A stretch of DNA of 32,000 bases from Ktedonobacterales bacterium. GTDB taxonomy: Bacteria > Chloroflexota > Ktedonobacteria > Ktedonobacterales > JADMIN01. Shown in pieces: positions 5,324-17,698 of this stretch (the stretch's first letter is position 1; the number at the start of each line of letters is the position of its first letter). A model generated the notes under the pieces. The model had not been told where the DNA came from, did no database searches, and was given only the letters and a program-made list of their open reading frames with translations. The stretch is from contig CP126532.1 of NCBI GenBank assembly GCA_030167145.1, positions 360,001-392,000 of the forward strand. Reading direction: 5' to 3'. The position numbers and the translations under genes are program-made.

Positions 5324-6501
5324 CTTTGCCACCTGGATCACTACCCTCCGACTCTGCCAATATCCTGGAGATCAAGCATCTGAGCGTCGAATATGCGTCG
5401 GCCAGCGGGACAGTTCGCGCCCTCAATGACGTCAGCATTGCTCTGCAACGAGGTCAGATTTTGGGACTCGCGGGCGAAAGTGGGAGTGGCAAGACAACGC
5501 TTGGACACGCGATAGCGCGCCTGCTCCATCCCCCCGCCGCTATTACCGGTGGGCAGGTATTCTACTATCCCGCCCAGGAATCTCAGCATGTCAGGGCAGA
5601 GAAGACCACAGGCGCCGACCAGCCAGTTGACGTCCTGCGATTGACTGCCAAACAACTGCGGGTTGTGCGGTGGAGCACGCTGGCCATTGTCTTTCAGAGC
5701 GCGATGAACGCGCTCAACCCGGTACTGCGGCTCAGCAGCCAGATAGACGATGTCATCAAGGCGCACCGGCCAGTGATGACCGTGCAGGAACGGCGGGAGC
5801 GCGCCAACGAACTCTTGCGGCTCGTTGGCATATCGCCTGACCGCATCAAGAGCTATCCGCACGAACTGAGCGGCGGCATGCGACAGCGCGCTATCATCGC
5901 CATAGCCCTGGCGCTGTCGCCAGAAATCATCATCATGGATGAGCCAACCACGGCGCTAGATGTGGTGGTGCAGCGCGAGATTCTCATGGAAATCGCGCGG
6001 CTGCGGGAGCGCTTCAACTTCTCGGTAATCTTCATCACCCATGACCTCTCGCTGCTGCTTGAGCTTGCCGACAAGATTGCCATCATGTACGCCGGCCGCA
6101 TCATCGAAACGGCCACCTGCGACGAACTCAAGCGGCAGCCACGACATCCCTATAGCTATGGCATGCTCCATTCGTTTCCCACGCTTCATGGCCCACGGCG
6201 CAGAATGACGGGCATTCCCGGCTCACCGCCTGATCTGCGTGAGATACCTACTGGCTGTGCGTTTCATCCGCGCTGCCCTATGGCATTCGCTCCATGCGCC
6301 ACGGCTCTGCCAGCGGTGCGCGCTTCCAGCGCCGAGACTCCCAAACAACTGGTCGCGTGCCATCTCTACGATCCAGCGCATACGAGCGGACCACTGCCGA
6401 CGAATGCCGATTTGGGAGCACGCTACGAGGAAGTCTACGCGCAGGTCGGCGTAAAGCCAAAGGGCACGTACAAGCGCGCGCCGGTGGAGGAAGTTCGATG
6501 A
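5320..6501 (+). CDS. ABC transporter ATP-binding protein (OppD/DppD type)
   Basis: Contains Walker A GESGSGKTT, the signature LSGGMRQR, Walker B IIIMDEPTTALD and a C-terminal oligopeptide-type extension (HPYSYGML...GCAFHPRCP). ATGA overlap with the upstream gene. Confidence 0.9.
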   Translation: MTLPPGSLPSDSANILEIKHLSVEYASASGTVRALNDVSIALQRGQILGLAGESGSGKTTLGHAIARLLHPPAAITGGQVFYYPAQESQHVRAEKTTGADQPVDVLRLTAKQLRVVRWSTLAIVFQSAMNALNPVLRLSSQIDDVIKAHRPVMTVQERRERANELLRLVGISPDRIKSYPHELSGGMRQRAIIAIALALSPEIIIMDEPTTALDVVVQREILMEIARLRERFNFSVIFITHDLSLLLELADKIAIMYAGRIIETATCDELKRQPRHPYSYGMLHSFPTLHGPRRRMTGIPGSPPDLREIPTGCAFHPRCPMAFAPCATALPAVRASSAETPKQLVACHLYDPAHTSGPLPTNADLGARYEEVYAQVGVKPKGTYKRAPVEEVR

Positions 6502-10933: not shown

Positions 10934-11200
10934 GTGTGGTGGTATCGGGCGCTGCTGGGGCTGCGGCTGTGGACGTGGAAAGGTAGTGCGCTCTCGCCCG
11001 AGAACCTGGCCGCGCTGCAACGCTATGTGGAGCCGATCACCGAGATGCCAGACGTGGTGGCGGTGCAGAGTCTGGTAACGGTGGATCACGCGTTGGGGCT
11101 GGCCGACTATCAGCAGCTCTGCGTGCCGCCCAGTGTGAACCCACAGATTGCGGGGGTGGCGGCGCAGCTGAGGAGTTGTGCTGATGAGGAGTTGTGCTGA
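10934..11200 (+). pseudogene. Isolated internal fragment of a larger gene (MMPL/YdfJ-like extracytoplasmic segment?)
   Basis: The 88-aa ORF (...ALSPENLAALQRYVEPITEMPDVVAVQSLVTVDHALGLADYQQLCVPPSVNPQIAGVAAQL...) resembles a loop-domain stretch of MMPL-type transporters. It has no N-terminus, TM segments or C-terminus, so it looks truncated on both sides. The family call is from memory only. Confidence 0.3.
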
Positions 11201-11207
11201 TGAGGAG
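11170..11207. repeat. 16-bp tandem duplication (2 full copies plus 6 nt)
   Basis: gaggagttgtgctgat occurs at 11170-11185 and 11186-11201, and gaggag follows at 11202-11207. The repeat ends 5 bp from the inferred IS110 end. Confidence 0.9.
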
Positions 11208-11224
11208 AGCAACTGTGTTGCCCG

Positions 11225-12430
<1,206 letters not shown>

Positions 12431-12433
12431 AAG

Positions 12434-12507
12434 GGGCAGGTGGGACAGGAATCGAACCTGCAACCTGCGGTTTTGGAGACCTGGGCGCGTTATCCAATGC
12501 GGTCCAG
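12434..12507 (-). tRNA. tRNA-Trp(CCA)-like 3' fragment / pseudo-tRNA (no 5' acceptor strand)
   Basis: The minus strand reads ...GCATTGGATAACGCGCC CAGGT CTCCAAA ACCGC AGGTT GCAGG TTCGATT CCTGT CCCACCT G CCC. It shows a T-arm with a canonical TTCGATT loop, a 5-nt variable loop, an anticodon loop CU-CCA-AA closely resembling E. coli tRNA-Trp, and a D-loop with GG. However, no sequence complementary to CCCACCT is present upstream, and the anticodon stem has 2 mismatches. Confidence 0.5.
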
Positions 12508-12553
12508 ATGTGTTCATCGCATCAGTTTCACACCCCATTTTTAGCTCCTTTCT

Positions 12554-12605
12554 GTCTAACCGCGTCTAACCATGTTGAGCGGCTAAGTGGTCAATTTAGT
12601 GGTCA
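12554..12605 (+). promoter_or_regulatory. Two pairs of short direct repeats upstream of the replisome-organiser gene (operator-like)
   Basis: gtctaacc occurs at 12554-12561 and 12564-12571 (10-bp spacing). agtggtca occurs at 12586-12593 and 12598-12605 (12-bp spacing). Both pairs lie 30-80 bp upstream of the ATG at 12634. Confidence 0.3.
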
Positions 12606-13003
12606 CATCCGCGAACGGTGAGGCGGTAGTGGTATGTCGCGTATCCCGTGGCTGCGTCTCTACTCGGAGGCGCGCATGGATGCCAAATTGCGTGCGCTTA
12701 GCGATGCCGAGCATCGGGTGTGATGTCATTTGCTGTGTCTTGCTGCCGAGCAGGAGGGCGACGAGCGCGGCTCCATCGCGGGCTATGATGATGAGTTGCT
12801 TGCGGTCGAGGTCTGCAATGGCGATGCGGCACTGCTGCGATCCACGATAGATCACCTGAAGAAGCTGCGCATTCTCTCAGAGGATGAGACGGGTGTCGTT
12901 ACCTTCTGCGCCTTTGAGAAGCGGCAGTATGATAAGCCGTCTGATGCGCCGGAGCGTGTGCGTGTACGTGTCGCGGCCCATCGAGCGCGGACTCATGATG
13001 ATG

Positions 13004-13070
13004 GTAACTCGGATGTAACGCCATGTAACGCCTCGGTAACGCCTGGTAACGCGTTGAAACATGGTGTAAC
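13004..13070. repeat. Phased GTAAC iteron array (7 copies, 10-11 bp spacing), a candidate replication-origin binding site
   Basis: GTAAC starts at 13004, 13015, 13025, 13036, 13046 and 13066, with a degenerate GAAAC at 13056. Three copies are the identical GTAACGCC. The intervals are 11, 10, 11, 10, 10 and 10 bp. Confidence 0.6.
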
Positions 13071-13077
13071 GAAGAGA

Positions 13078-13155
13078 GGAGAAGGAGAAGGAGAAGGAGA
13101 AGGAGAAGGAGAAGGAGAAGGAGATACAGATGCAGATGCAGATGCAGATGCAGAT
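13078..13155. repeat. Adjacent hexanucleotide microsatellites (GGAGAA)x7.8 and (GATRCA)x5
   Basis: GGAGAA runs from 13078 to 13124 and encodes (GE)7. gat aca followed by gat gca x4 runs from 13123 to 13155 and encodes DTDADADADAD. Confidence 0.95.
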
Positions 13156-13741
13156 CTCTCCTCTCCAGCAGTGGTTACGAAAGATGATGATGGTGATATA
13201 GGCGGCGGAGGCGGAGAGAACGCGCGCACACGCTCGCGCGAGGAACATCCCGTTCGTCCTGCTGTCCCCGCTGTCGCTGCGCTCCCCGCCGCCGCTGCCG
13301 CCAGTGCTCGATCTCCATCAGCAGAAAATGGTGAGCCAAAGAAGGGGGACCCCAAGCTGACGCAGCAAGCCAGGATGGAGCGCTCCGAGCTTCGAGACCT
13401 CACCGGAGCGGTGGCGCGAGCGGCAAAACTTGCGGCCTATGATGCGGCGGCGCTGGAAACGCTGGTCAGCCGCTACGAGCAGCATGGGCGGGCGTGGCTG
13501 CTGGATGAGGCGTGCGCCGCCGCCGACTGGATTGCGGGCGAGCGGAATAAGAAGTTGAAGGAGAAGCAGCGGCGGATGAATGTGGCGTTCTTGCGCAACT
13601 GGTTCAAGAAGTCCGAGGAGGGGTACGCCGGTGGGCAACATGGACACGCAACCAATCAATCATCAACAAGCGGGCAACAATCAATCGCTATCGGTTCCGC
13701 GTCGGCGGTTTCGGGACCTGGCGGGGTATCACCATCTGTCT

Positions 13742-13824
13742 CAGGCGCTCTCCCAGGCGCTCTCCCAGGATTCCCAGCAGGATTCCCAGCAGGATTCCCA
13801 GCAGGATTCCCAGCAGGATTCCCC
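13742..13824. repeat. 12-bp tandem repeats: (caggcgctctcc)x2 then (caggattcccag)x4.9
   Basis: The units start at 13742, 13754, 13766, 13778, 13790, 13802 and 13814. They encode GALPGALPGFPAGFPAGFPAGFPAGFPG in the organiser frame. Confidence 0.9.
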
Positions 13825-13990
13825 GGCAATGGACGAGGCCGGTACAGCGGGCCAGGATCATTCGGGGGACGGGTCGAGCCAGGGTCGCGGGAATATTGGG
13901 CGCTGCGCAGGCAAATCCGGGAGGAGCGCGAGCGACAGGAACGACAGGAAGCCGCCGCTGCCGCTGGCTCAGCCTAACTCTGGTAGCTCG

Positions 13991-14731
13991 GTGGTGCGCT
14001 TCGCCTGCGATGCGTGCCACGACACGGGTTGGGTGCGGGCGGGAGCGTTCGGTTCCGACACTGGCTGGAAGGCTGATGTGGTGCGGTGTGGCTGCCAGCG
14101 GGAGGCGGATCAGCGGCGGGTGTGGGAGCGGTCGCAGCGGATGAGCAATCTGTCGCCGGAGATGCGGCGGCTGGCCTTTGACGGGTTCGATGCCGGGCGG
14201 TCGGTGAGCATTCAGCAGGCGTACACGGTGATGCTCCGGTTTACCGAGCAGGTGACGGGGTGGGTGGTGCTGAACGGGGCGAGCGGGTTGGGCAAGACGC
14301 ACTTGCTGGCGGCGGCGGCGAATGCGCTGCTGGCGGCGGGGCATGCGCCGGTGTATGTCGTCGCGGTGGACTTTCTGGATTATCTCAAAGCGGCCATGCG
14401 GAGCAGGCAAAACGGCGAAGAATCCGGGAGAGACGCCGATGATGGGTTCGAGACGATGGAGCGGCGGATGGAGCAGGCGCGGACGTGCGAGGTGCTGCTG
14501 CTGGATGATTTGGCGGCGGAGCGGGAGACGGAGTGGTCGGTGGAGCGGTTCTATGCGCTCTTGGAGTATCGCTACCGGAATGCGTTGCCGACGGTGCTGG
14601 CGAGCAACCTGCATCCCGATGACTTTCCGGCGCGGGTGGCGTCGCGGCTGCAAGACCGGCGGTTGTGCCGGGTGGTGGAGATGACTGGTGATGATTATCG
14701 GTTGCGTGCCGAGAGGAGAAGGGGAGCGTGA
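13991..14731 (+). CDS. DnaC/IstB-like AAA+ ATPase (phage helicase-loader type)
   Basis: The Walker A reads LNGASGLGKTHLL and the Walker B reads VLLLDDLAAE. The C-terminal region NALPTVLASN...ASRL is typical of DnaC/IstB. A Cys-rich N-terminus (CDACHDTGW...RCGC) is present. The start is uncertain: the frame is open from 13580, and I take the first GTG after the upstream stop at 13977. Confidence 0.8.
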   Translation: MVRFACDACHDTGWVRAGAFGSDTGWKADVVRCGCQREADQRRVWERSQRMSNLSPEMRRLAFDGFDAGRSVSIQQAYTVMLRFTEQVTGWVVLNGASGLGKTHLLAAAANALLAAGHAPVYVVAVDFLDYLKAAMRSRQNGEESGRDADDGFETMERRMEQARTCEVLLLDDLAAERETEWSVERFYALLEYRYRNALPTVLASNLHPDDFPARVASRLQDRRLCRVVEMTGDDYRLRAERRRGA

Positions 14732-15210
14732 GGGATATGCGAGCGAACAGAAAAGCAATGGTGAAGGCGAAGATGTGGCGTGAGTGGCGCACGGTGTGGG
14801 CGGTTGATGCGGCATGCCAGGTGCGGCAGGTGACGGTGCATAGCTGTCTGGCCGAGGAGGTCGGGGAGGCGAGCGAGGAATCTGAGGCGGTGTCTGCGGC
14901 GGACGGTGCGGGGTGGTGGTATGCGCCGTCGCTGGCGTTCAGTTCGCGGCTGGATGGGCAGCAGGATAGCTTCTTCACGTCGGAGGCAGCGGCGGTGGCG
15001 GCGGCGATCCGGCGGGCGCATGCGCGCATCGTGCTGGCGAACCGGCAACTGGACCGGCTGTATCAGCGGCGGGCGGTGCTGGCGCTGCTGGCGCAGAAGG
15101 CAGAGCGGGCGTGGGGGAAGGCAGGAAAGGGGGGGAAGGCAGGAGCAGAGGAGGAGGACGCAGCCGAGTGTGCGGTGGACGAGTTCATCGAGACGTTGAA
15201 GGGGGCATGA
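14728..15210 (+). CDS. Hypothetical protein (prophage module)
   Basis: 160-aa ORF whose GTG overlaps the DnaC-like stop (GTGA), which suggests translational coupling. An alternative ATG lies at 14737. I recognise no family. It is a GC-rich region, so the coding call is moderate only. Confidence 0.45.
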   Translation: MRDMRANRKAMVKAKMWREWRTVWAVDAACQVRQVTVHSCLAEEVGEASEESEAVSAADGAGWWYAPSLAFSSRLDGQQDSFFTSEAAAVAAAIRRAHARIVLANRQLDRLYQRRAVLALLAQKAERAWGKAGKGGKAGAEEEDAAECAVDEFIETLKGA

Positions 15211-15445
15211 AGCAGGGGTGTGAAGCGGCGGGTGAGCATGGCTCGCGCAGGGGGCTGAGGAGATGCGCGGGGTCGGGGTGTGATTGGAAAGCGAGCGTAC
15301 GTCAGAATGCATCACGTTTGGCGCTCCGTACGTGCGCGCGAGGGTGATGAGGAGGAAGAGGAGGAAAGCGAGAAATCATGGGACGTTGCGCGTGTTCCAC
15401 ACAGGGAGAGGCATGATACCTCCCCCTTGAAGAAAGGCTGAAATC

Positions 15446-15880
15446 ATGGGCGATGATACCGTGCGTGCGCTGTTTAAGCCGATTGAGCAGGAGACGATTC
15501 CCTTCTACGGGCATGATCTGGTGGCCGTACGCTTGGCCGATGGCCGGATCGCGGCGGTCCTCCGGTGGCTCTTTGAAAGCCTGCATCTGGACCGCGCTGG
15601 CCAGATGCAACGTATCGAACGCAAGTCGGCGCTGCGCGACGGCCTCATGGATCCTTATTGATGCGGAAGTGGCAACGGCTGGCGGCCCGCAGACGATGCC
15701 CGCGCTGACCTTGGATGTGTTGCCTGGCTACCTCTTCACGATTGATGAGCACCGCGTGAAGCCAGAGGCACGCGCCGATGTGGTGGTCTTCCAGCGCGAA
15801 TGCGCACAGGTGCTCGCTAGCCACTTCACCCGCAAGCATCAAGCGCATCAAGCGCATCAAGCCCATCAAGCCCTGGTGTC
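15446..15880 (+). pseudogene. P22 Ant-like antirepressor N-terminal domain (P22_AR_N type), frameshifted and 3'-truncated
   Basis: Frame 2 (15446-15661) gives IPFYGHDLVAVRLADGRIAAVLRWLFESLHLDRAGQMQRIERKSALRDGL and then stops. The domain continues in frame 0 as EVATAGGPQTMPALTLDVLPGYLFTIDEHRVKPEARADVVVFQRECAQVLASHF. Together these fit the P22_AR_N pattern, so a frameshift lies near 15640-15662. Downstream sequence becomes antisense to the IS630-like fragment. Confidence 0.65.
15837..15872. repeat. 9-bp tandem repeat x4 (catcaagcg/catcaagcc)
   Basis: The units lie at 15837-45, 15846-54, 15855-63 and 15864-72. They encode HQAHQAHQAHQA. Confidence 0.9.
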
Positions 15881-16147
15881 TCTGGCGCCCATGCCAGCGG
15901 AGGCGGCGGAGGTGGCGGAGGCGGCTTCCAGCCGCGCGCGCAAACTGGCTTCCTGCTCCGGGCCAATGCGGCGCGGGCAGCCGGGAATCGGTTTGCGCTC
16001 CAGGGAACCCGTCTCGCGCTGTTGCACCACGGCGCGTTTCACCGTATTCACGGCCACTCCAAAGCGGCGCGCGGCTTCTCGCATGGGCTGACCCGCTGCC
16101 ACCGCGCGCACCAGGCGTTCTTTCAGGTCGGTCGAATAGGCACGCAT
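15866..16147 (-). pseudogene. IS630/Tc1-type transposase, N-terminal HTH fragment only
   Basis: From the ATG at 16147 the translation is MRAYSTDLKERLVRAVAAGQPMREAARRFGVAVNTVKRAVVQQRETGSLERKPIPGCPRRIGPEQEASLRARLEA. This is the typical IS630-family N-terminal HTH/winged-helix region. Similarity is lost after ~15905 and no DDE domain follows. Confidence 0.7.
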
Positions 16148-16198
16148 ACCTGGGAGCTCCGCATAACCCATGCCTGCCATTGCTTCTCGCAAGTTGCT

Positions 16199-17698
16199 CT
16201 AGCGCGCTGGCGCGAGGCTAATGATGTTGGTCTGGACGCGGACTCGCGCGGTAAGGCCGCCGCCGAAGAGCGTCACCCAAATGCTAAGATGACCGCTGTT
16301 CCAGGCTGCGCCCTGAATCGTGGCGTTGGGGGGGATAGTGTAGGGGAGTTGCGCCCAGGTGTGCCCTGCGGTATCCCAGTACCAGATATGAAATTCGGGC
16401 AAGATGATATTGGGGGTACTGGCAGTGGCCGAACGCAAATAGAGCAGAGAGCCACCAGGTCCTTCACTCGCGTCGGCGAGCGATGTGCCCCACGGCCTGC
16501 CACCGGTGAAGATGTTTCCGGCTGGCGCAGGTGGAACGGGTGTCCAGCGCAGCGCGGGCGCGCCAAAGGGGTGAACCATCCAACTTGGAGGCAATGTGGC
16601 CGTCGCGATGGCGGTGGTGGTCAGTTTCGTAGCGCCAGAGCCAGTGACGACGCTGGTGAGCAGATAGATGCGCCCCCAGCCGAGCGTGGCAACGTCTCTC
16701 GGAGCGCTGGACAAGAGCACTCGCGGGCTGGTTCCGGGAAGGCTGGCAAGCACTTGCCAGGTCAGGCCGCTATCCCAACTCTGCCAGAGCAGGTTCTCAT
16801 TGAGCACTCCGCTGCGCGCGGTCTGGGCCAGGATGCCGCCATCAGGGCGGAAACCGAGGACCGTCAAATCGCTTGCGCTGTCTATGCCGATATCTGCCGC
16901 GCGCCATGTTGCTCCAAAGTCGCTCGTGGTGAGGATGCGTCCCGCAGCGCCCGCTGGCAACTGGCTAGCGGCGAGCAATGGCGTATTAGCATAGATGTAG
17001 AGGCGTTTCGCTACCAGAGCGAATCCGAGGTCACAGGTGCTCAGCACGCTCGACGGCCACAGTATGGGGCGCCAGTTCGCGCCGCGATCCGTGGTGGCAT
17101 AGAGGGCGGGAGGCGGACATGTGTCGCTGTTGATAGAGATATTCTTGACGACAAGAATTGCGGAATCCTCGATGACCGTGTCGGATCGTATGTCACAGCC
17201 AAAGGCGTTGGGCGCGGGTCCGCGCAGATCGCTCCAGGGGTTCGCGACTGAGGTCGCGGGATTGTACAGCGCGAGTTGAAGCGGCCCGACCTGCACGCCA
17301 AGCGCCCTACGTGGGAGGTTGATCCAGCAAGCATAGGCCAAGGCGGAGGGGCCATTCGCTGGGGCAATGCGGATCTGCGGATTGGCGGCGGCACTGGCAG
17401 GAGCATCGAAATGCTGCCAGCCAAGGTTGCCAGGAGGCGCGGCGCTGAGCCGTGAAACCGCCGGAGCCGACTGGGTGAGCAGACGAGCGACGGTGGCTGG
17501 ACCGCCAAGGAGCACGACCGCCAGGGCAATAAGACTCGCAACGGCAAACGCTCCACGACGCAGTTTGCCGCGTGGAGTGAGCCGGCGCTCCCATGAGGGG
17601 ATGCCGGTGTCCCATACTAGGTCGTCATCGTCGCCGGCGTCGCCCTCAGCGGCATCGGAATACCAGTCGGGATGCCAGTTCGCAACCGGTTTGTTCAT
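16199..17698 (-). CDS. Membrane-anchored BNR/Asp-box repeat (beta-propeller) protein
   Basis: The ORF track lists 16199..17737; I take MNKPVANW at 17698 as the likely start. The protein has an acidic N-terminus and one TM helix (AFAVASLIALAVVLLGG). It then carries repeated S/T-x-D-x-G-x-T/N-W Asp-boxes (TTDRGANW, TSDFGATW, SWDSGLTW). Confidence 0.7.
   Translation of the reverse strand: MNKPVANWHPDWYSDAAEGDAGDDDDLVWDTGIPSWERRLTPRGKLRRGAFAVASLIALAVVLLGGPATVARLLTQSAPAVSRLSAAPPGNLGWQHFDAPASAAANPQIRIAPANGPSALAYACWINLPRRALGVQVGPLQLALYNPATSVANPWSDLRGPAPNAFGCDIRSDTVIEDSAILVVKNISINSDTCPPPALYATTDRGANWRPILWPSSVLSTCDLGFALVAKRLYIYANTPLLAASQLPAGAAGRILTTSDFGATWRAADIGIDSASDLTVLGFRPDGGILAQTARSGVLNENLLWQSWDSGLTWQVLASLPGTSPRVLLSSAPRDVATLGWGRIYLLTSVVTGSGATKLTTTAIATATLPPSWMVHPFGAPALRWTPVPPAPAGNIFTGGRPWGTSLADASEGPGGSLLYLRSATASTPNIILPEFHIWYWDTAGHTWAQLPYTIPPNATIQGAAWNSGHLSIWVTLFGGGLTARVRVQTNIISLAPAR

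Follow-up and report, generated by a model that had tools for sequence, protein, structure and literature searches.

A phased GTAAC word array and purine-rich tract within a disrupted replisome-organiser gene of a prophage remnant: a candidate origin of the SPP1 oriL type

The window analysed here, the whole 32,000-nt stretch from a Ktedonobacterales bacterium, carries a short block of phage genes. Because the genes on either side of it are ordinary metabolic and transport genes, we regard the phage segment as a ~3.6-kb remnant. An IS110 transposase gene (11225-12196, minus strand) abuts it upstream, next to a partial tRNA-like sequence (12443-12505, minus strand) that comprises a T-arm and the 3' acceptor half. 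This sequence is a weak Rfam match, the only relevant one in a scan of 11000-17000, and ARAGORN called no tRNA. Lying at the left edge of the remnant beside IS110, it may be what is left of an old attachment site; we found no convincing att-like direct repeats bounding the remnant. Further in are a disrupted replisome-organiser (origin-binding initiator) gene (12634-13977, plus strand) and, downstream of it, a gene for a DnaC/IstB-like AAA+ helicase loader (13991-14731, plus strand; phrog_50, E 5.5e-40; PF01695 and PF00308), whose start codon is likely GTG 13991. A small ORF separates the loader gene from an antirepressor (Ant) gene that is split by a frameshift (15446-16091; P22_AR_N in the ORF 15446-15661, phrog_524 in the ORF 15453-16091) and that contains the in-frame repeat (GCATCAAGC)x4 at 15836-15871. 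Of the remnant ORFs examined, none was recognised as coding for a replicative helicase.

The organiser gene, recognised by homology, encodes an N-terminal DNA-binding domain, a linker that bears the putative origin, and a C-terminal domain without a Pfam type. Its reading frame is interrupted: in the alignment of homologues, an in-frame TGA at 12721-12723 (GAG CAT CGG GTG TGA TGT, plus strand) takes the place of the TGG codon of an invariant tryptophan, Trp30, the residue of that column in 12/12 homologues. Restarting the frame at TTG 12730 would cost 13 invariant residues. Either the codon has mutated to nonsense or the TGA is an error of sequencing. A first-pass annotation of the bare sequence had placed a candidate phage origin inside the organiser gene; homology to organisers and the location of the repeats in the linker bear this out, but the gene is not intact.

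The N-domain is 43-77% identical to its homologues, the nearest being encoded in Ktedonobacterales MAGs (76-77%), and a tblastn search with it against 50,697 INPHARED phages gave no match in cultured phages. Looking up the exact protein of the window ORF returned no record. Eight of 13 family members match PF09681 (Phage_rep_org_N; best E 3.5e-7). The window domain itself falls below the cut-off of this model (E 0.065, 13.7 bits, cut-off 23.3) and is also a weak, below-cut-off match to TIGR01714 (E 0.048); its link to PF09681 is transitive, via P0007 and P0010. A Pfam scan of the C-terminal half of the organiser gave no match, DnaD-like PF07261, PF09524 and PF06926 included. This C-domain is common to P0001/L109 only, and since its type varies across the family it is not strictly defining. 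The gene also carries, at 13742-13823, the perfect in-frame tandem repeats (CAGGCGCTCTCC)x2.3 and (CAGGATTCCCAG)x4.8, which encode ALPG/FPAG; the copies are fewer in the L109 paralogue, so the gene is slippage-prone.

An AlphaFold2 model of P0002, a close homologue that is 77% identical to the window protein across the N-domain, predicts a confident alpha/beta domain (residues 6-91), a mostly confident helix at residues 106-122 (pLDDT mostly 55-76, as means of 10-residue blocks) and disorder from residue 125 to 223, which is the part encoded by the repeats and the purine-rich tract described below. In the window, the helix corresponds to the basic segment PERVRVRVAAHRARTHD, encoded by codons 106-122 (12949-12999, plus strand) directly 5' of the repeats, and is a candidate recognition helix. 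The coding frame would tolerate the DNA elements because, as modelled, they fall in a disordered linker between domains. Foldseek comparison of the model with the PDB returned weak winged-helix matches (MarR, CodY, CggR and the RepA_N-type plasmid initiator 4pta; all E >= 0.07), which are consistent with a DNA-binding fold and are no evidence of family.

The repeats themselves form a phased array of short words at 13004-13070 (plus strand), candidate iterons for the organiser N-domain. Exact GTAAC words start at 13004, 13015, 13025, 13036, 13046 and 13066 and a degenerate GAAAC at 13056, the steps from word to word being 11, 10, 11, 10, 10 and 10 bp. Three of the words, at 13015, 13025 and 13036, belong to identical octamers, GTAACGCC. 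All the positions and one-turn steps noted in the first pass for seven motifs, the three identical octamers and the odd linker peptide quoted there, DVTPCNASVTPGNA, could be reproduced from the window sequence and its translation. This peptide arises because the words alternate between two reading frames, GTA ACG CCn giving Val-Thr-Pro and nGT AAC GCn giving x-Asn-Ala. Since GTAAC occurs just 29 times on both strands of the 32-kb window, with 20 expected, six copies on one strand within 67 bp lie far beyond chance (Poisson estimate ~1e-12 per 67-bp window, ~1e-8 to 1e-7 window-wide).

The palindrome AACGCGTT at 13048-13055, between word 5 and the degenerate word 6, is the sole short palindrome of the array and resembles the abutting direct and inverted copies (GTAACGTTAC) found in arrays of Firmicutes phages. 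The inverted copies of the word (GTTAC) that flank the array at 12898 and 13174 were rejected as boundary sites, since the homologues compared have no conserved GTTAC at either place; nor did we adopt a functional hairpin for the array region, as its single-strand fold (z=-3.6) stems from pairing among the repeat copies. No DnaA box (up to one mismatch to TTATCCACA) was found within several kb of the array, and a search for GTAAC revealed no second phased array in the window. Promoter and terminator scans of 12400-14100 were empty, which leaves an internal-promoter explanation unsupported.

Directly after the last word begins a purine-rich, A+T-enriched microsatellite tract (13071-13155, plus strand), composed of (GGAGAA)x8 and (GATGCA)x5-6, which is a candidate DNA-unwinding element and also a candidate junction for module exchange. 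Tandem Repeats Finder resolves it, with copy numbers as in the assembly, into (AGGAGA)x8.0 at 13077-13124 (100% matches) and (AGATGC)x5.7 at 13122-13155 (96% matches), so that the microsatellites reported in the first pass are where they were said to be. A pure-purine run of 54 nt covers 13071-13124, the runner-up in the window being 20 nt long. The duplex stability of the tract is low (z about +2.8): it is the minimum of the whole remnant and belongs to the three stretches of 80-100 bp with the lowest stability in the 32-kb window. The unit and length of the tract vary among relatives, and its profile is shared. With 82 loci aligned at the point where the last word ends, the ~50 bp that follow fell 0.25-0.28 kcal/mol per step below the mean stability of the locus, with A+T higher by 16-17 points and a coding-strand purine fraction of 0.69-0.76. 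The proposal that the tract serves as an unwinding element is thus favoured by its low stability and by the family-wide profile, but with an A+T content of only ~50% it is not a classical AT-rich element.

We gathered 108 homologous loci from genomes, IMG/VR and metagenomes, of which 87 non-identical ones were used for phasing. A locus was counted as phased if a 5-mer recurred with at least two consecutive steps of 10 or 11 bp within 240 nt after the conserved RQY anchor. This was the case in 91% of the 87 loci, compared to 0.2% of codon-shuffled sequences and 0.8% of other 240-nt windows from the same loci. Chains comprise 3-12 copies with a mode of 4 (7 in the window), and steps of 10 bp (167) and 11 bp (125) give a mean of 10.4 bp. 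There are two main classes of word: (A)TGTAACG[A/C]C was counted at 139 sites, (A)TGTCACGC at 181. Their core is 96-100% conserved and the flanks are variable; the G at -1 (96-97%) and the G at +5 (96%) lay outside the searched tetramer, so their conservation was not required by the search.

What these words encode varies. Within open ORFs the core GT[A/C]ACG is read in all three frames (162, 137 and 93 times), yielding the peptides VT, [C/G/S/R]-N/H-A and x-S-R; in the window, the words switch between two of them. Codon choice follows the word: the Val-Thr codons of the linkers are GTA or GTC in 88% and ACG in 89% of cases, compared to 43% and 26% in the N-domain, and Asn or His is preceded by Cys, Arg, Gly or Ser, for which the codon is almost always TGT, CGT, GGT or AGT. 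The ORF stops short of the array in L008 and L019 and within the second word in L067, so that all or most of the words, together with the purine tract, persist as non-coding DNA. From the phasing, the three frames, the forced codons and the non-coding persistence, we conclude that the conserved object is the DNA word and not the peptide. The suggestion made in the first pass, that selection acts on the DNA rather than on the protein, is upheld by this comparison of periodicity and peptide among homologues (91% phased against less than 1% in controls).

Loci with shortened organisers form a subtype of their own (L008, 4355-4480; L019, 3868-3985; L067, 843-975; L074, 3360-3478). Their ORFs encode the N-domain only, and what follows is a series of phased words (4-5 copies), a purine tract, either AAAGGTCTTTA or AGAAAGACCTT as a conserved element, and perfect DnaA boxes (TGTGGATAA), one or two per locus. 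These boxes lie 49-77 nt after the array in the four loci, while the remaining ~300 kb of loci contain a single perfect box. This subtype may represent a hybrid origin that uses a phage initiator together with the host DnaA.

The family is large. At E<=1e-3 a profile search recovered 6,146 cluster representatives, of which 1,684 remained at E<=1e-10, and the peptide footprint of phased words was present in 124 of the 146 best new representatives (85%). Searching at the DNA level for three phased GTAACG words returned at least 120 IMG/VR contigs. Among 127 arrays from this search, 68 come directly after a detectable N-domain homologue and 51 are in viral contigs without a detectable adjacent N-domain gene, so the GTAACG word is not exclusive to organiser genes. 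Outside the 68, some arrays are reverse-strand matches of palindromic arrays or precede purine tracts within organiser-like genes whose divergence is too great for the HMM used, and others are intergenic. In five IMG/VR loci (L131, L157, L186, L196 and L229) phased GTAACG words occupy apparently intergenic DNA, some with inverted copies or long runs of GTAACGTTAC palindromes, and no organiser N-domain was detected near these arrays. Such arrays might serve as second origins or as operators, or be targets of other proteins.

The layout in the window has a close counterpart in the Bacillus phage SPP1. In SPP1, oriL consists of iterons (AB boxes) bound by G38P and an adjacent AT-rich DNA-unwinding element, and oriL-dependent replication in vitro requires a 356-bp StyI-HindIII fragment, which also suffices for it. 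Gene 38 contains the words GAAACG/GAAAAAG at nt 361, 372, 382, 393 and 405, followed by (AACAATGAT)x3; the StyI (CCAAGG, nt 224) and HindIII (AAGCTT, nt 580) sites bound the 356 bp, and words and repeat fall inside nt 225-580. As in the window, the origin is within the initiator gene, directly 3' of the N-domain, with words phased at 10-12 bp, an A-rich tandem-repeat tract after them (the unwinding element in SPP1) and a helicase-loader gene downstream, to which SPP1 adds a helicase gene. The degenerate word of the window, GAAAC, equals the core of the SPP1 word. The analogy with SPP1 drawn in the first pass therefore extends to the position of words and AT-rich repeat in gene 38 and within the minimal oriL. 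There are also clear differences: G38P has no detectable homology to the window N-domain (hhalign probability 0.2%, E 0.36), its own N-domain gave no match to PF09681, and its C-domain is PF09524, whereas that of the window has no Pfam match. The SPP1 unwinding element is truly AT-rich, in contrast to the purine-rich window tract with its 54-nt pure-purine run and ~50% A+T, and SPP1 has a second site, oriR, of which the window shows no equivalent array. Judged from the sequences, the resemblance is architectural and not by homology of the initiators.

Homology of the N-domain, transitive as noted above, points instead to phages with Phage_rep_org_N organisers (PF09681/TIGR01714), in which GTAACG words also sit in a low-complexity linker. 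Streptococcus phage Javan393 (PF09681, E 5.9e-49) and Enterococcus phage VEsP-1 have four GTAAC(G) words each, at steps of 10-12 bp and followed by purine-rich hexanucleotide repeats (GAAGAA, GATAAA). In Listeria phage A500 the copies at this position are clustered more loosely and run in both orientations. Pairing of a direct with an inverted copy (GTAACGTTAC) is frequent in the Firmicutes arrays, whereas every copy in the window array is direct. These phages also differ from the window in their C-terminal domain; the window lineage is Chloroflexota-like and GC-rich. The TIGR01714 description reportedly takes the low-complexity region to reflect direct repeats in the DNA that can serve as a phage origin.

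The lambda origin, inside gene O between the parts coding for the N- and C-domains, likewise sets initiator repeats beside an easily unwound region, and the O N-domain and its iterons form a specificity cassette. Lambda has four iterons of ~19 bp with internal dyad symmetry, bound by O dimers; the window words, in contrast, are 5-8-bp direct repeats at 10-11-bp steps, and the O protein is unrelated. Of the parallel with lambda and SPP1 put forward in the first pass, repeats inside the initiator gene beside an unstable tract remain, but dyad iterons of the lambda type are absent.

Phages of the lactococcal P335 group resemble the window in using direct repeats in their own organiser genes as origin. 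For Tuc2009 (Rep2009) and TP901-1 (ORF13), a review describes experiments in which the organisers bind direct repeats within their own genes and these repeats are the origin; the annotation of the Tuc2009 rep gene reads 'contains origin of replication'. ORF11 of r1t was assigned as an organiser by sequence similarity, and we find in it GGAACC words in phase and, after them, an AT-rich repeat of 15 bp, (GATAAGAATAGATTA)x2. Unlike the window, these phages have other N-domain families, other words and AT-rich genomes.

The words are conserved at the DNA level in the family, an unstable tract adjoins them, word and N-domain co-vary (see below) and the layout is identical to that of SPP1 oriL; we therefore consider it likely that 13004-13155 is a replication origin of the SPP1 oriL type, belonging to a (pro)phage replication module and located in the linker of the organiser gene. 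The comparative data (91% of 87 loci phased, layout shared with SPP1 oriL) hence speak for the candidate origin first proposed from the bare sequence; that this DNA is bound, melts and acts as an origin is what we infer from them. The design with the origin in the initiator gene is already known from SPP1, and the window is a further case of the SPP1-oriL or Phage_rep_org_N type. In the mechanism we envisage, the winged-helix-like N-domain of the organiser and its basic helix 106-122 would bind the seven GTAAC(G) words, whose 10-11-bp spacing would place them all on one face of the helix and give rise to a one-sided oligomeric protein filament. The strain from this filament, together with negative supercoiling, would melt the adjoining 85-bp purine-rich, A+T-enriched tract, onto which the organiser C-domain and the DnaC-like loader encoded downstream would place the replicative helicase.

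If this reading holds, one-turn GT[A/C]ACG words and a purine-rich tract after a Phage_rep_org_N-like domain would provide a rule for finding origins of uncultured phages and prophages from sequence alone, and the origin-inside-initiator design of SPP1 and the lactococcal phages would extend to elements associated with Chloroflexota. The family also provides a clear example from nature of coding sequence overprinted, in all three frames, by a DNA signal.

The words could have a regulatory role instead, as an autoregulatory operator or roadblock through which the organiser throttles transcription of its own gene or of the loader gene, replication starting elsewhere. Sites inside the organiser's own gene could indeed affect transcription in cis, and the intergenic phased GTAACG arrays with inverted, operator-like copies (L157, L186 and L196) would suit such a role. 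We nevertheless find it improbable: a low-stability purine tract is always coupled to the array, and in four loci DnaA boxes lie beside it, for which an operator would have no need; the same layout is a proven origin in SPP1 and in lactococcal phages, and there is no promoter-like site nearby.

Whatever its past function, the copy in the window is probably, from the state of the sequence, an inactive relic in a decayed prophage, as indicated by the TGA at the invariant Trp30, the frameshifted antirepressor gene, the ~3.6-kb extent of the remnant and the flanking IS110. With its organiser gene interrupted by the TGA, the origin cannot fire from its own initiator, and because the element is a decaying remnant the biological consequence for the window itself is small. 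One could ask whether the array is kept in the chromosome as a decoy that titrates the organiser of incoming related phages, in the manner of lactococcal Per (phage-encoded resistance). The window words are intact and number 7, against a family mode of 4, next to a dead initiator gene, and in lactococci a Per phenotype is conferred by cloned phage origins. However, that phenotype came from cloned origins supplied in trans, whereas one chromosomal copy would titrate little; the neighbouring genes are decaying too, suggesting neutral erosion, and the nonsense mutation may be recent. We therefore give the decoy very little credence.

Comparison with the L109 locus shows how the replication module is put together. 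DNA homology between the two starts at 13116-13119, within the purine tract, and runs through the loader gene, defining a module of organiser C-terminal domain and helicase loader (13116-14701, plus strand; blastn, 85-88% DNA identity). Upstream of this junction L109 has only a distant homologue of the window N-domain (hhalign 95.6%, E 1e-8) and a different word in its linker (6330-6390), GTCGCAA x5 at steps of 11, 11, 11 and 10 bp. Since L109 differs 5' and matches 3' of 13116-13119, N-domain and words move as one cassette with the junction in the purine tract. This location, and the differences in tract unit and length among relatives, would also be expected if the microsatellite were mainly a hotspot for recombination and module shuffling, its low stability being incidental. 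That explanation is hard to sustain, as A+T excess, purine skew and a length of ~50 bp are kept across 82 loci from several phyla and the tract persists where it is non-coding; a role as junction is, besides, compatible with one as unwinding element.

Least probable of all, and largely refuted, is the idea that the region is merely a low-complexity, disordered protein linker whose periodicity comes from tandem duplication of a 7-codon unit: the predicted disorder, the recent perfect 21-bp tandem duplications in L015, L029-L031 and L034 and the perfect window microsatellites, suggestive of recent slippage, agree with it, but one DNA word is read in three frames and fixes the codons, the amino acids at the NGT position (C, R, G, S) are chemically unrelated, words outlast the end of the ORF in L008, L019 and L067, and the core stays 96-100% conserved as the flanks drift.

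The class of the word can be predicted almost perfectly from three residues of the basic helix, 109, 113 and 116 (mutual information up to 0.91). Organisers with GTAACG words have V/V/H at these positions, those with GTCACG words T, K or Q, and Q or S. The overall identity of the N-domains is nearly the same within word classes (0.417) and between them (0.397). In sequence comparison, this co-variation suggests direct read-out of the word and points to possible determinants of specificity, although it may come in part from shared ancestry, which is a confounder here along with the overprinting of some helix codons by the DNA signal. The residues at i, i+4 and i+7, V/V/H for A and T/K/Q for C, may amount to a reprogrammable recognition code. 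A broader proposal joins these elements: N-domain, G-T-[A/C]-A-C-G words and purine tract would form a portable specificity cassette present in thousands of organiser genes across phyla, with one basic helix reading the central base of the word, and the truncated subtype would be a hybrid origin of phage initiator and DnaA. We put this joint proposal forward as tentative, and all its parts holding together is rather doubtful.

The L109 locus holds one more domain of this kind: just upstream of its paralogous organiser gene, the gene at 5423-5965 encodes an HNH endonuclease with a fused domain that resembles Phage_rep_org_N and, at 24.3 bits, exceeds the PF09681 cut-off.
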